Source of the DNA: an uncultured Eubacteriales bacterium
Lineage (GTDB): Bacteria; Bacillota; Clostridia; TANB77; CAG-508
Assembly: GCA_949840345.1 (NCBI GenBank)
Contig: CATKWX010000008.1
Span: 1,801-65,800, forward strand
Direction: 5' to 3'
DNA length: 64,000 nt
Part shown: positions 47,136 through 62,100 of the stretch, in pieces
Layout: each line of letters opens with the position of its first letter
Numbering within the stretch: position 1 is the first letter of the stretch
Notes under the pieces: generated by a model
Database searches by the model: none
The model's input: only the letters and a program-made list of their open reading frames with translations
Told to the model about the DNA's origin: nothing
Made by a program: the position numbers and the translations under genes

Positions 47136-47345
47136 ATATTGCAAACACTGTAGGGGTCGGACTTGTGTCGACCCGTGAAAAGTGAATAGTGAAAAATTAA
47201 TAGTGAAGGGTACAAAAATCTTCGATTTTTGATGTAGGGAACAGACCAACGTCGTTCCGTGCTTCGAAGGCAATGTAGGGGCACCGTTTGTGGGAATACC
47301 CGTTAGGTTATGACACCACTGTGCCCAAAAATCGATTTTTGAGAA
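47136..47345 (+). repeat. Composite 5' UTR module: CATATTGCAAACACTGTAGGGGTCGGACTTGTGTCGACCC (C), AGTGAATA repeats, hairpin, type A, type D, then CCCAAAAATCGATTTTTGAGAAAGAAGG.
   Basis: All sub-modules recur elsewhere. The track ORF 47288 start lies inside it. Confidence 0.6.
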
Positions 47346-48770
47346 AGAAGGATGTCGAATTGTTAAAAAATATTCAAATAAAAATAATATTAGTGTTAGT
47401 TATAGTAGGAATTGTTGTAATGTCTGGTATAGGGATATTTTTGGGTATAACTATGCAAGAACTAAAACAAAATGTAACAGAAACAGAAGCAGTTGAAATT
47501 CAAATGCAACAAGCGAAAGTGTTGTTCATATCTGGAATATCTATATATGCAGTTATTTCTATTATGATAGGTATGTTTGTAAATAAACACATAGTAAATC
47601 CTACAACAAAATTAATCAAAAGTGCAGAAAAAATGGCTTCAGGAGATATTACAAAAATAAGCAAGAGTAAAAATGAAATTACAGACTTAACAGATGCTTT
47701 TAACTATATAAGTGTAGAAATGAAGCAAAATTTAAACGAAGCAACTAGACAAAAAAAGCAAATGGAAACTATACTTTTGCATATGACAGATGGAATAATT
47801 GCCTTTGGAATAGATGGTGATATAATACACATAAATCCAGCGGCTAAAGCCTTCTTGGGACTAGAAAAGGATGATAATAATTTTGAAAGAATATTCAAAA
47901 AGATAAATATTGATATAAATATGGAAAAAGTAATATATTTAGAAAACTGGACATCCTCAGAACAAAAAGTAAAAGTTGGAGATAGATATATTAATATGTT
48001 CTTTGCACCATATAAGGATGAAAACGATAGACCTGCAGGTATGATTGTTGTAATACAAGATATAACAGAGCATGTAAAATTAGACAATATGAGAAAAGAA
48101 TTTGTAGCAGATGTATCTCATGAATTAAAAACTCCAATAACGTCAATAATGGGATATGCAGATACTTTATTAGAAGGTGAATACGAAAAAGAAATTCAAG
48201 ATAAATTTTTAAATGTAATAGCATCAGAAGCACGTAGAATGGCAAAATTGGTAAGTGATCTACTTACATTATCAAGATATGATAATTCTCAAACAAAAAT
48301 AGAAAAAACAGAGTTTGATTTAGGAGAACTAGTAAAGAAATGCCAAGAGAAACTACAAATAGAAATAGATAAGAAACATCAAGATACAGAATGCTTTGTA
48401 ACTGCTAATGTTCCACCAGTATTTGCAGACAAATATGGAATGGAAAGAGTAATACTAAACATATTGTCAAATAGTATAAAATATACTAGAGATTTTGGTA
48501 AAATAAAAATATATGTTGGATTTGTATATAATAATGCATATATAAAAATTATAGATAATGGTATGGGAATACCAGAAGATGATTTAAATAGAATATTCGA
48601 AAGATTTTATAGGGTAGATAAAGCTCGTACAAGAGAAATGGGAGGAACAGGACTTCGGATTATCAATTGCAAAAGAAATACTAGACAAAAATAATGGAAG
48701 TATAGATATTAAAAGCGTTGTAGGACAAGGTACAGAAGTAGTTATCCAAATTCCAACAGTAAATAAATAG
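47288..48770 (+). pseudogene. walK: WalK-like sensor histidine kinase (TM, HAMP, PAS, HisKA, HATPase). The G2 box 'GGTGLGLSIAKEI' is restored only by a +1 shift at the in-frame CGG (~48656); frame 0 ends at 48694. The real start is probably the TTG at ~47358, downstream of the repeat module.
   Basis: 'DVSHELKTPITSI' H-box; in the +1 frame after CGG: 'GLSIAKEILDKNNGSIDIKSVVGQGTEVVIQIPTVNK*'. Confidence 0.7.
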
Positions 48771-48836
48771 TATAAAAATATTGATTAATTCTTTAGGCTA
48801 TTGTATAATGTAAAAATAGAAAGAAGGTTTATACAT

Positions 48837-49466
48837 ATGATAAAAGTTAGTCCAAAAGTAAAAAATGTAATGGAATGGATTTTTTGTATAATAGTTGCTG
48901 TAATATTAGCGCTATTATTTAGACATTTTATAGGAACACCTACGATAGTACAAATGCCATCAATGAAAACAACATTAATGCCAAATGATAGATTAATATT
49001 AAATAGATGGGTTGCAACAGTAAATGGAAAGATAGATAGAGAAGATATAATAACATTTGAAGCACCTACTGGGAATGGAACGATAGATAATCCAATTGCA
49101 AGATATGACTATAATCCAACTAAATTCTGGGAAAAATTCAATTATTACTTTTTAGAAAATGGTAAAACAAGCTATATAAAAAGAGTAATAGGAATAGCAG
49201 GAGACCATATTGAAATAAAAGACAACAAAGTATATAGAAATGGAGAATTACTAAACGAAGAATATTTACAAGATGGAATAGTAACAGCTCCTAATGGAGG
49301 GGTATTTACAGATGTAGTAGTTCCAGATGGATGTATATTTGTAATGGGAGACAATAGACCACAAAGTGCAGATAGTAGAAATTTTGGATGTATACCATTA
49401 GATAGAGTAGAAAGTAGAGTGCTTTTCAGATTCTGGCCATTAAACAAATTCGGAAAGGTAAAATAA
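48837..49466 (+). CDS. lepB: Signal peptidase I (S26).
   Basis: 'GDNRPQSADSR' box E; N-terminal TM. Confidence 0.8.
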   Translation: MIKVSPKVKNVMEWIFCIIVAVILALLFRHFIGTPTIVQMPSMKTTLMPNDRLILNRWVATVNGKIDREDIITFEAPTGNGTIDNPIARYDYNPTKFWEKFNYYFLENGKTSYIKRVIGIAGDHIEIKDNKVYRNGELLNEEYLQDGIVTAPNGGVFTDVVVPDGCIFVMGDNRPQSADSRNFGCIPLDRVESRVLFRFWPLNKFGKVK

Positions 49467-49467
49467 A

Positions 49468-59574: not shown

Positions 59575-60676
59575 ATGAATAAAAGAAATTTAAAAAATAC
59601 AGAATGGAGCATATTAATAATAAGTTTGGTACTATTCATAATAGGAATAGTTGCACTATATTCTTGCACCCAAGCTACTGAATTTGACGAAATGAAAAAG
59701 CAAATAATATGGTTTGTAGTAAGCATACCAATATTAATTGTATTTTTTGTTGTAGATTATAATTTAATAAGCAAAGCTTCATACGTAGCATATGGTATAT
59801 TTATTCTTTTGTTAGTAGGTGTTTTATTTACACCAGAAATAAATGGAGCAAGAAGTTGGTTTAACATTGGAGCATTTTCACTTCAACCTGGAGAGTTTGC
59901 AAAAGTGTTTGTTGTAATACTGTTTTCCACAATAATATGCAAATTTCAAGAAAAAGGAAAAAATGAAATAAATAAACCTTGGAAATTAATCTTATCATTG
60001 ATGGTTGTAATATTACCAACATTGTTAATTATAATACAGCCGGATATAGGAACAGCAGCTGCATTTATTGTATCTACAATTTTCATTTTATTTGTAGCAG
60101 GAATAGATAAAAAATATATAATAGTAACTTGTGCTTTAATAGTGATATTAGTACCATTAATATATATGTTTGTATTGCCAGATCACGCAAAAACTAGAAT
60201 AGACGTATTCTTAAATCCTAATTTAGACCCTAGAGGTTCTGGATACAATGTAATTCAGTCTAAATTAGCAGTTGGCGCAGGAAAAGTATTTGGGATGGGA
60301 ATTTTAAAAGGAAACCAAACACAATTGGGATTTTTGTATCCTAAAACTACAGACTTTATATTTGCAGTAGTTGGAGAAGAAATGGGATTTATAATTTCAG
60401 CTGCAATAGTTATATTATATGTGCTATTACTAACTAAAGCCATATATATTGCAAAAACTGCTAAAGACGATTTAGGCTCATATGTAGCCACAGGAATAGT
60501 TCGGAATACTGTTTTTTCATGTATTAGAAAATATAGGCATGACCGTAGGACTATTGCCAATTACAGGAGTTCCATTGCCTTTTATAAGTTATGGAGGAAG
60601 TTCACTTATAACAAATTTTATATGCATAGGTATATTGATGAATATTAGTTCTAGACGCCAAAAAACAATATTTTAG
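59575..60676 (+). pseudogene. rodA: FtsW/RodA-family peptidoglycan glycosyltransferase. The frame is broken at an in-frame CGG (~60502); the +1 frame gives the conserved '...LPITGVPLPFISYGGSSLITNF...' C-terminus.
   Basis: The track ORF 59563-60648 ends in nonsense; the +1 frame after 'GTT CGG' reads 'GILFFHVLENIGMTVGLLPITGVPLPFISYGGSS'. Confidence 0.7.
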
Positions 60677-60856
60677 TAGTTTGAAAAATAATTAGCATAT
60701 TGTGTCGTTATTTAAAACTAGAAAATCCTCGATGTACAAATGTACACCTCCGGTATTTCTAGTTTTAAATGCCTAGCACTATACTAATTCTTTTTCAAAC
60801 TATTAAAAAAATAATCAGCATATTGCAAACATTGTAGAAAGGAATTTGAACACACA

Positions 60857-61832
60857 ATGTATATACATCCATTAAAAATAGGAAATGTAGAATTAAATAA
60901 CAATATATTGTTAGCACCAATGGCAGGTATAACAGATAAATCCTTTAGAATTATGTGCGAAGAAAAAAGTAATCCACGGACTTGAGTTTACAGAAATGGT
61001 AAGTTCAAAGGCAATATATTACAAAGATGAGAAAACACAAAAATTAGTAAATACAGATAATGAAAAAACTAAAGTAGCTATACAGATATTCGGAAGTGAG
61101 CCAGAGATAATGGCATATTCTGCAAAAGAATTAGAATGTAAGGCAAGCATTATAGATATAAATATGGGATGCCCAGCACCTAAAGTAGTAAAAAATGGAG
61201 ATGGAAGTAAGCTATTATTAAATTTAGAACTAGTATTTGAAATAGTAAGTAAAGTAGTTAATGCAGTGAATGTTCCAGTAACAGTTAAAATGAGAAAGGG
61301 TTGGAACAATACAAATATTGTTGCAGTTGAAGCTGCTAAAATTATAGAAAAAGCAGGTGCAAGTGCTATAACAATACATGGAAGAACGAGGGAGGAGTAT
61401 TATTCAGGGAAAGTAGATTTAGACATAATAAAAAAAGTTAAAGAAGCAGTAAATATACCTGTAATAGGAAATGGAGATATAAAGAATGCTAAAGATGCTT
61501 TAAAAATGTTTGAATATACAAATGTAGATGGAATAATGATTGGAAGAGCAACTTTAGGTAATCCTTGGGTAATAGGGCAGATAAAAGAAGAGTTAAATGG
61601 AAATGTGGCAAATTTGCCTAGCAATGATGAAAAACTTAAAACAATAAAAGAGCATATAGATTTGGAAATAGCAGAAAAAGGAGAGTACATAGGAATAAGG
61701 GAAATGAGAAAGCACATTTCTTGGTATATAAAAAATTTAAAAGATTCAAGTAAAGTAAGAGAAAAAATTAATATATTAGAATCAAAACAAGAAGTTATAG
61801 ATTGTCTAAATGAATATTTTAAAACATTGTAA
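60857..61832 (+). pseudogene. dusB: tRNA-dihydrouridine synthase (DusB-like). The frame is broken at an in-frame CGG (~60977) about 40 codons from the start.
   Basis: N-terminus 'MYIHPLKIGNVELNNNILLAPMAGITDKSFRIMCEEKSNP' then CGG; the +1 frame 'GLEFTEMVSSKAIYY...' continues into the track ORF 60996-61832. Confidence 0.7.
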
Positions 61833-62004
61833 ATATAATTGTAGGGGAAAGAATTTCCTATTGCATAGGAAAAATCGCAAGATTTTTCTAGAGCAACAAG
61901 GTTAAGTTTCATTGATCCGTGCATATTTGCGAAGCAAAATGCACATATGGCGAAGCCACTTTTCTTACAATTATATTTTTTTAAATATATTTAATTGCTT
62001 GCAA

Positions 62005-62100
62005 TAAAAATATTGCATATTGTAGGGGCGCATGATTGCGCCCATTGAAGAGTGAATAATGAAGAGTGAAGAGTACAAAAATCTTCGATTTTTGAGAAAG
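62005..62100 (+). repeat. 5' UTR module: ATATTGCATATTGTAGGGGCGCATGATTGCGCCC (E), AGAGTGAATAATGAAGAGTGAAGAG, TACAAAAATCTTCGATTTTTGAGAAAGG.
   Basis: Near-identical to 31936-31990. Confidence 0.6.

Follow-up and report, generated by a model that had tools for sequence, protein, structure and literature searches.

The 64,000-nt stretch of contig CATKWX010000008.1 analysed here (the window), from an uncultured Eubacteriales bacterium, carries a small repeat cassette in front of several of its genes. The cassette is built from 1-8 tandem heptamers of the form RTGAAKA, the junction (G/A)TAC and a palindrome of 16-26 nt framed by A4 and T4. It is a lineage-wide and strand-locked element that ends flush with the Shine-Dalgarno sequence (SD) of the next gene, is gained and lost, and is often but not always joined to palindromes headed by GTAG. 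It is one component of the mosaic repeats that populate the intergenic regions of a low-GC lineage of uncultured gut Clostridia; in this genome they also include GC-rich, REP-like palindromes headed by GTAG.

Repeat unit and architecture of the cassette

The window has 22 matches to the octamer AGTGAAKA where 7.9 are expected. None of 100 shuffles reaches 22, and 21 of the 22 matches are on the + strand. The matches are spaced by 7 or 14 nt, and Tandem Repeats Finder reports arrays of period 7 or 14 at 5672-5705, 47175-47207, 51354-51391, 52157-52196, 62046-62074 and 63267-63294. The unit is therefore a degenerate heptamer, RTGAAKA. A scan of the window for TGAA at a 7-nt period finds five arrays on the + strand and none on the - strand. 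The heptamer has no C and, as read from its sequence, holds TGA and TAG or TAA, so that three units give stops in all forward frames. The window as a whole has 28.6% GC, its + strand is purine-rich and nearly all of its genes lie on that strand.

In a full module the RTGAAKA heptamers are followed by GTAC and by the palindrome, which is framed C-AAAA ... TTTT-G. A covariance model trained on 52 modules and searched against both strands with filters off recovers five full modules in the window (47196-47240, 51376-51420, 52181-52231, 53420-53464 and 62059-62103), all of them on the + strand. The other matches in the window are partial, and none on the - strand is a full module. The five window copies are training members and therefore match by construction; the informative part of the search is the lack of a full match on the - strand. 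At fdx, porG, porA and open reading frame (ORF) 62111 the SD starts 0-2 nt past the palindrome, the end of which lies 15-16 nt before the start codon. The copies in the window are the following.

51355..51389, + strand: fdx, array of five heptamers
51390..51418, + strand: fdx, GTAC and palindrome CAAAATTC-TTC-GAATTTTG (51393-51411), then SD AAGGTGG; ATG at 51428
52160..52194, + strand: porG, heptamer array
52195..52229, + strand: porG, GTAC and palindrome CGAAATTTGC-TATTC-GCAAATTTTG (52198-52222), then SD AAGGAGG; ATG at 52237
53420..53433, + strand: porA, two heptamers, ATGAATA GTGAAGA
53434..53462, + strand: porA, GTAC and palindrome CAAAATTC-TTC-CAATTTTG (53437-53455, one mismatch), then SD AAAGGAG; ATG at 53471
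62045..62072, + strand: ORF 62111, array of four heptamers after a GTAG palindrome at 62022-62043
62073..62101, + strand: ORF 62111, GTAC and palindrome CAAAAATC-TTC-GATTTTTG (62076-62094), then SD GAAAGG; ATG at 62111
47175..47209, + strand: walK-like kinase gene, heptamer array GTGAAAA GTGAATA GTGAAAA ATTAATA GTGAAGG
47210..47231, + strand: walK-like kinase gene, GTAC and palindrome CAAAAATC-TTC-GATTTTTG (hairpin 47213-47231)
47326..47359, + strand: walK-like kinase gene, second mini-palindrome AAAAATCGATTTTT, then GAGAAAGAAGGA with the SD; weak covariance-model match of 11.2 bits
31970..31994, + strand: kinase gene at 32002, palindrome CAAAAATC-GGA-GATTTTTG and SD GAGGAGG; 16.3 bits over model positions 12-49
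5672..5705, + strand: ORF 5775, heptamer array with no palindrome of the cassette type, then a GTAG palindrome at 5709-5733 and the SD 30 nt beyond
63267..63294, + strand: ORF 63508, heptamer array with no palindrome, about 210 nt upstream of the ORF

The porG array lies within a leader of about 240 nt, 3' of a promoter match, TTGACA-17-TATACT, at 51960-51988; at least that copy should therefore be transcribed. The two porA heptamers are preceded by a 52-nt GTAG module that holds a nested GTAG palindrome (53342-53412). At walK the palindrome is followed by two GTAG palindromes (47234-47326) and not by the SD, and the likely start codon of the kinase is the TTG at 47360. The kinase gene at 32002 has no adjoining heptamers; it is preceded by a GTAG palindrome at 31936-31958, 5' of which there is a heptamer-like stretch.

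A preliminary description of the window had listed eight genes with a module of octamer repeats and a hairpin abutting the SD. The octamer is the heptamer plus one base. Five of the eight genes have full modules, and the hairpin abuts the SD (gap of 0-2 nt) at four of these, namely fdx, porG, porA and ORF 62111. At walK the SD is separated from it, the kinase gene at 32002 has the palindrome only, and ORFs 5775 and 63508, which have heptamers only, have no hairpin at the SD. The gene labels of that description hold, since Pfam supports the assignments of the response regulator, histidine kinase, fdx, porG, porD and porA. The module was also said usually to follow GC-rich palindromes; it is often joined to GTAG palindromes and occurs without them in many genomes. 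Its full modules and arrays are confined to the + strand of the window. A related form stands elsewhere at the 3' ends of tRNA genes.

Distribution in other genomes

Other genomes, one per species, were scanned with the 22-nt pattern RTGAAKARTGAAKAGTACAAAA, and the counts in this section are among the matches listed. At least 99 stretches match the pattern, and all matches listed come from metagenome-assembled genomes (MAGs) of uncultured Clostridia. A relaxed definition gives 121 distinct instances. The number of heptamer units per copy ranges from 1 to 8 with a mode of 5, and about 75% of the copies end 14-16 nt before a start codon. In the low-GC group, which is made up of MAGs with 26-32% GC from at least 30 species, 57 instances consist of the short palindrome, SD and start codon, 11 run into A followed by TGTAGGGG, a GTAG palindrome, and a few are of other kinds. 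Many genomes carry the cassette in the absence of any GC-rich palindrome, and it is therefore a unit of its own.

The higher-GC group (MAGs with 35-59% GC) has a different continuation. The heptamers and GTAC are followed by a long terminator-like hairpin that adjoins the CCA end of a convergent tRNA gene, and an identical hairpin sequence is found beside different tRNAs. This form is present at loci L011, L013, L018, L021, L043, L046, L053, L063, L083, L084 and others. Its long hairpins fit the description of an intrinsic terminator. Inverted heptamer arrays are present at some loci (L033, L057, L071 and L089), and in some cases they stand upstream of the tRNA-adjacent form.

No stretch of 2.9 million viral contigs matches the 22-nt pattern. 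At least 120 viral stretches match a 15-nt pattern; among those listed, only five have as much as one heptamer-like word just upstream, and in none of these five do the palindrome and an SD follow. A phage origin or use was rejected. Strain polymorphism was likewise rejected, other contigs encoding the same protein being identical across the overlap. Rfam 15 has no match to the whole window at gathering thresholds, and with permissive thresholds the region 47000-64000 gives sub-threshold matches at chance level only, none of them on a module.

Position relative to genes

In 527 kb of low-GC loci there are 87 intergenic arrays whose downstream gene is known, and 81 of them have the sense orientation of this gene, as does GTAGGG in 117 of 140 cases. 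The few arrays on the minority strand are inverted-array elements or belong to loci of mixed gene orientation, and either transcription or replication may be the cause of the strand lock. The gap between the upstream stop codon and the array varies from -1 to 505 nt, and about 15 nt separate the palindrome from the start codon; the cassette is therefore located at the gene-proximal end of the spacer. The SD AAGGAGG precedes 55% of module genes versus 20% of the other genes at the same loci, the start codons having been picked by SD score.

Among the matches listed in other genomes, the SD-flush form precedes genes for 54 distinct proteins, mainly with housekeeping functions. NCBIfam identifies GroES, L14, EF-Ts, YebC, ClpP, S16, L22, S17, S14 and L15 among them, and the products recognised by their N-termini include GroEL, GatB, L9, L10, Rho, MreB, RpoC, Prs and Upp. 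Twelve of the 54 are ribosomal proteins. Ribosomal proteins make up about 3% of a bacterial gene set, and the bias is therefore strong, the 3% being a general figure that was not derived from the same genomes.

Gain, loss and copying

Eighty loci that encode PorA proteins of 82-88% identity, 544 kb in all, were collected independently of the module. Their porD-porA junctions are tight or filled by unrelated spacers, and the 147-nt composite of the window is present in none of them. Real heptamer arrays are absent from them, and GTAGGG stays at its background level (11 on the + strand and 17 on the - strand). A conserved leader of the por genes is thus ruled out by orthologous loci.

Across six species, the same junctions of the S10-spc operon hold the cassette in some species and lack it in others, and the unfilled junctions measure 0-22 nt:

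rpmC-rpsQ junction: filled, 119-139 nt, in four species; empty, 0 nt, in L055
rplO junction: filled, 94-310 nt, in two species; empty, 22 nt, in L049
rpsE junction: filled, 186 nt, in L074; empty, 9 nt, in L049

The rpsQ-rplN spacer of L074 is a 68-nt cassette alone. The cassette may bring its SD along or may land beside one that is already there: the SD at rplO looks pre-existing, and the empty site at rpsQ lacks a canonical one. One and the same palindrome variant, such as CAAAACTCTTCGAGTTTTG, precedes the unrelated genes gatB, clpP, groEL, rplJ, rho and prs, both within and across genomes, and L066 contains three tandem 112-nt units, each made of the cassette and a GTAG palindrome. Presence and absence at the junctions, the shared variants and the tandem units of L066 together mean that the repeat is copied around and lost again. 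Indirectly, these sequence comparisons point to spread by copying, in a copy-and-paste manner within a mosaic that resembles repetitive extragenic palindromes (REPs) and bacterial interspersed mosaic elements (BIMEs).

The hallmarks of miniature inverted-repeat transposable elements, that is, terminal inverted repeats and a target-site duplication, are found neither at type-1 copies nor on comparison of filled with empty junctions. A tblastn search of the window and 0.83 Mb of related loci gave no match to IS200 TnpA, the search being weak and its query insensitive.

The palindrome and predicted folding

In an alignment of 52 sequences 95.7% of the cells are paired, and all five inner pairs show two-sided changes (30 cells). 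The observed values are reached in none of 500 shuffles, and slid partners are at most 63% paired. An independent count, in which the bounds of the hairpin were taken from the A/T frame only, gives an inner pairing of 72-91% versus 46-70% with shuffled partners. Judging from these alignments, palindromicity is maintained through double changes. The loop often reads YTTC, which complements the core of the heptamer. Complementarity between the inner palindrome on one side and the heptamers and SD-like sequence on the other amounts to -5.4 kcal/mol versus -2.6 and -3.1 kcal/mol for shuffled sequences.

Predicted folds of six window leaders have 4-bp contacts with the SD in fdx and porA and none in the other four. 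A terminator or attenuator was rejected, since a terminator scan lists none of the window module hairpins; in these hairpins the T-run is taken up by pairing to the A-run, and the inner stem measures 3-5 bp. A promoter inside the module was rejected too: a sigma-70 scan found no more sites than in shuffles and placed none in the cassette, and the ATATTGCAAAC motif is a linker beside GTAG palindromes and not a -35/-10 pair. Mini-ORFs starting at the RTG of the heptamers and UAC cleavage of the MazF/EndoA type were discarded, as judged from sequence, for want of a consistent frame or motif (UACAA, not UACAU).

Associated repeats and neighbouring features

The palindromes that flank the cassette are 20-40 nt long, imperfect, GC-rich and headed by GTAG. 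These REP-like features are those of the flanking palindromes and not of the cassette of heptamers and AT palindrome. GTAGGG occurs 27 times on the + strand of the window and once on the - strand, and GTAGGGR-N17-CC is observed 13 times against 0.05 expected. The palindromes, about 27 per 64 kb, are mostly intergenic, with several lying in frame inside ORFs. They form mosaics with the linker AAAAACATATTGCAAAC, a CTTCGAAG-type linker and a 52-nt module. Two BIME-like head-to-head GTAG pairs in the window (34115-34186 and 59455-59526), and only these, share the linker AAAAACATATTGCAAAC, with one copy on each strand. The 52-nt module is itself headed by GTAG (GTAGGGGCACCGTTTGTGGGAATACCCGTTAGGTTATGACACCACTGTGCCC, GGGGCACCGTTTGTGGGAATACCCGTTAGGTTATGACACCACTGTGCCC) and has five copies, at 7631-7682, 47275-47326, 53342-53412, 54670-54721 and 56218-56268; it mostly sits just 5' of an SD, has no Rfam match and in the 53342 copy nests another GTAG palindrome.

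GTAG palindromes are read through in frame at 4467 (ORF 3558-5663) and at 39785, 40409 and 40568 (ORF 39152-40711). They encode, for example, ..IVGNETSVVP.., ..VGADVPVRP.. and ..VGVASLGDP.., and are reminiscent of the Rickettsia palindromic elements of coding sequences. A 78-nt tandem repeat of 2.6 copies at 59075-59279 is located inside ORF 58693-59358, which has a MinE domain; each unit holds GTAGAG(A/G)(C/T)AAGCATTGC(T/C)(C/T)GTCC and is apparently derived from the GTAG palindrome at 52114 (GTAGGGGCGAGCATTGCTCGTCC). An intergenic repeat of about 140 nt (..AAAAGAATAAAATTCCTCGGCTACATTACAAAATTTAAGAAATTCTAA..TTTATGGCACCCTTTCA..) has three copies, at 630-770, 11160-11300 and 34040-34115, and is unrelated to the heptamer cassette. 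A dispersed repeat, ..AAAATCCTCGATGTRCAAAWGYACACCTCCGG.., at 60700-60800 also fills intercistronic gaps of the S10-spc operons in L014, L049, L052 and L074. Two CRISPR arrays, with repeats of about 30 nt (ATTTACATTCTACTATATTTATATTAAAAC and its reverse-complement form), are present at 14560-15590 and 25460-27300, and the co-oriented ORFs between them (15915-25245) are probably a cas operon.

Response-regulator and kinase genes of a pair are usually contiguous. In the window the response-regulator gene (46324-47085) and the kinase gene (47360-48694) are separated by a terminator-like hairpin, AAAAAAAGGGCTGTAAAGCCCTTTTTT, at 47090-47115 and about 250 nt of repeat mosaic. Mechanically called ORF starts inside the mosaic (TTG 47288 and GTG 53408) are false N-terminal extensions of the kinase and PorA, the likely starts of which are at 47360 and 53471. 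As these cases show, ORF calling is led astray by the module and the GTAG palindromes, with palindromes also read as coding. Both also tag a specific lineage and may serve as its marker in metagenomes. Downstream of porA, porB (54747-55701) is split into two overlapping ORFs of 138 and about 185-209 amino acids, as it is in the public contig L001 (2637-3591); the split may reflect a pseudogene, a frameshift or faulty assembly.

Possible role of the cassette

The favoured explanation, which is given about an even chance, is that the cassette is a dispersed repeat that acts as a generic insulating or stabilising leader and not as a switch for a specific set of genes. Nearly all surviving copies occupy the coding strand and have their palindrome directly against the SD of the next gene. 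The cassette would be co-transcribed with that gene and would act on it in a generic manner. The C-free, stop-rich heptamer array would be a poorly structured spacer that ends upstream translation, and the palindrome would form a fixed structural boundary beside a strong extended SD (AAGGAGG). Such a boundary could insulate the initiation region from upstream GC-rich palindromes, and could possibly shield the downstream cistron, on its 5' side, once processing has taken place. The cassette would persist where it is harmless or helpful. If it is an insulating leader it would for this reason be tolerated, and perhaps favoured, before highly expressed genes, including those of ribosomal-protein operons. 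A generic leader placed by mobile DNA would mean that repeats can colonise such operons when they end in a defined structure beside a strong SD. The layout of stop-rich spacer, hairpin and extended SD suggests a natural insulator design.

Several observations weigh against a leader function. Transcription, processing and the effect on expression are read here from the sequence. The pairs of the palindrome are nearly all Watson-Crick (400, with 5 G.U and 6 A.C), which is DNA-like and without a wobble bias. Selection on the hairpin as RNA is not claimable, G.U being no commoner than A.C, and a requirement at the level of DNA, for example as a single-strand substrate of a transposase, would therefore explain the covariation equally well. 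For 43 of 59 modules the predicted minimum-energy structure has the last heptamers paired to the palindrome's 5' arm and loop in place of the palindrome itself, and the folding energies of the window modules are near those of shuffled sequences (z of -0.2 to -2.2). The bias to highly expressed genes could come from an insertion preference and not from selection, and it is judged against a general figure for bacteria; the SD comparison depends on start codons chosen by SD score. The cassette is also not restricted to leaders, the related form adjoining the 3' ends of convergent tRNA genes. The failure to find a transposase in the window and the sampled loci comes from a weak tblastn search.

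The first alternative, which on balance is rather unlikely, is a selfish, non-autonomous element that is moved as single-stranded DNA, for example by an enzyme of the Y1 type or a REP-associated tyrosine transposase (RAYT) that also serves the GTAG palindromes, and that has no role in the transcript. The SD-flush position on the coding strand would then reflect the choice of insertion site, possibly through pairing of the CTMTTC stretch of the palindrome with GAAG(G)AG-like targets, and the purging of harmful insertions. The perfect, DNA-like palindrome is as expected of such an element. So are the presence and absence at orthologous sites, the identical copies at unrelated genes, the tandem composites with GTAG palindromes, the complementarity of the inner palindrome to heptamers and SD-like sequence beyond that of shuffles, and the form flush with tRNA 3' ends. 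The GTAG palindromes, some of which have even entered ORFs in frame, have a 27:1 strand bias, in agreement with a DNA mechanism that is strand-specific. However, the 0.83 Mb of sampled loci yielded no transposase in the weak search, and type-1 copies have neither target-site duplications nor terminal inverted repeats. Insertions in ribosomal-protein operons and before groES/groEL would be expected to be counter-selected unless they are harmless or useful, and the SDs of module genes are stronger than those of their neighbours.

A second alternative, which appears unlikely, is that the array is a binding platform. A multimeric or ring-shaped RNA-binding protein, or an antisense RNA, would read the UGAA heptamers at their 7-nt spacing and open or close the adjoining palindrome, and so exert global translational control on highly expressed genes. 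The UGAA core and the 7-nt register are kept across at least 60 MAG species with 26-59% GC, the arrays adjoin the SD, and two mutually exclusive pairings are available, that of the heptamers with the loop and that of the palindrome itself. Inverted (TATTCAC)n arrays, potential sources of antisense RNAs, are present in some of the same genomes (L057 and L071), and the analogous TAACTGA repeats have the same gene bias, including ribosomal-protein operons (PMC4679880). The factor is, however, hypothetical; the copy number lies anywhere between 1 and 8, and orthologous sites can do without the cassette. The conserved part of the heptamer is UGAA, which in HutP sites would be the spacer, and the triplet equivalent to the UAG of HutP varies (UAG, UAA, GAG or AAA). 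The hairpins of the window are not terminators, its - strand has no arrays, and there is no Rfam match. If the cassette does bind a factor, this would add a layer of control on core genes of abundant uncultured gut Clostridia. A bolder form of the proposal is quite improbable: a hypothetical reader of UGAA at 7-nt spacing would govern, across the lineage, how the genes of highest expression (those for ribosomal proteins, chaperonins and ferredoxin/PFOR) are translated or how stable their transcripts are, and the copies adjacent to tRNA terminators in higher-GC Clostridia would serve as a further class of sites or as sponges.

A regulon-specific switch in the 5' untranslated region of redox/energy and sensor kinase genes, such as a structure that occludes the SD or an operator of the Rex type, has in its favour that window modules precede fdx, porG, porA and two kinase genes and that GTGAA in the heptamer presumably resembles a Rex half-site, but it is contradicted by the gene census and extremely improbable, since the downstream genes elsewhere mostly serve translation or are chaperones, the porA orthologues have no module, the repeats are direct and not inverted, and SD pairing is rare and weak in the six window leaders (SD pairing was not scored in the fold survey of 59 modules).

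The preliminary description had proposed such a co-regulation of redox/energy genes and kinases, with occlusion of the ribosome binding site (RBS) as one mechanism. The first proposal does not survive the mostly housekeeping census of 54 genes or the absence of the module upstream of porA in the 80 orthologous loci, and occlusion does not agree with the rarity and weakness of SD pairing in the window leaders. Its other suggestion, that a composite mobile element has the module at its 3' end and so brings ready-made initiation contexts with it, is largely borne out by gain and loss, shared variants, GTAG composites and SD-flush ends. The earlier observation is thus partly confirmed, and the earlier interpretation partly supported.

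Relation to known repeats

HutP binds UAG-N4 triplet repeats at 7-nt spacing and TRAP binds (G/U)AG repeats. The cassette resembles their sites in having short motifs at fixed spacing beside a leader hairpin. Unlike in HutP sites, the conserved part here is UGAA, the HutP-equivalent triplet is UAG, UAA, GAG or AAA, and the hairpin is not a terminator. Unlike the sites of both proteins, the cassette is dispersed over dozens of unrelated genes and is dispensable.

Correia elements of Neisseria, ERIC/IRU of Yersinia and BOX of pneumococcus are small repeats that are co-transcribed and alter the fate of the mRNA. They share with the cassette the dispersed intergenic or intercistronic position, the hairpin potential and the inclusion in mRNAs. 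They differ in being elements of 100-150 nt of the terminal-inverted-repeat type that lack tandem heptamers and a fixed register to the SD.

The short tandemly repeated heptanucleotides of cyanobacteria (STRR), reportedly described by Mazel et al. in 1990, are a looser parallel. To our knowledge, STRR arrays are not positioned at start codons. They too are tandem heptanucleotide arrays dispersed between the genes of one lineage; they have other sequences and are not tied to an adjoining palindrome and SD. STRR repeats are used for fingerprinting (PMC5088731).

The GTAG palindromes of the window resemble REPs and BIMEs (PMC3733652, PMC2817692) in being numerous (27 in 64 kb), mostly intergenic, GC-rich, mosaic with linkers, tandem and nested, and in their presumed co-transcription with neighbouring genes. 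They differ from BIMEs in their 27:1 single orientation, which is not alternating, and the cassette differs from REPs in being AT-rich, without GTAG and found alone in many genomes. No RAYT was found in the window and the 0.83 Mb of related loci by a weak tblastn with an insensitive query. The main text of a survey of GTAG palindromes from 2013 makes no mention of Firmicutes or Clostridia (PMC3733652).

The nearest published case comes from marine Beggiatoaceae and from some Cyanobacteria and Bacteroidetes, which have direct repeats of the heptamer TAACTGA (MacGregor 2015, PMC4679880). These repeats occur in the forward direction in sets of 2-6 copies just upstream of start codons and contain stops in the forward frames. 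They are over-represented before translation genes and inside ribosomal-protein operons and are taxonomically patchy, and a post-transcriptional role is suspected; they usually overlap the expected position of the RBS, and canonical RBSs are rare there (PMC4679880). The cassette likewise has tandem direct heptamers, forward and upstream of starts, with a bias to translation genes, stop codons and a patchy distribution. It differs in its heptamer, which is the degenerate RTGAAKA, in its phylum, and in its layout, the array being followed by (G/A)TAC, the palindrome and a strong canonical SD, with GTAG palindromes in association. Should a reader of UGAA exist, it would be the Firmicute counterpart of the network suspected for the TAACTGA repeats and would make that question testable.

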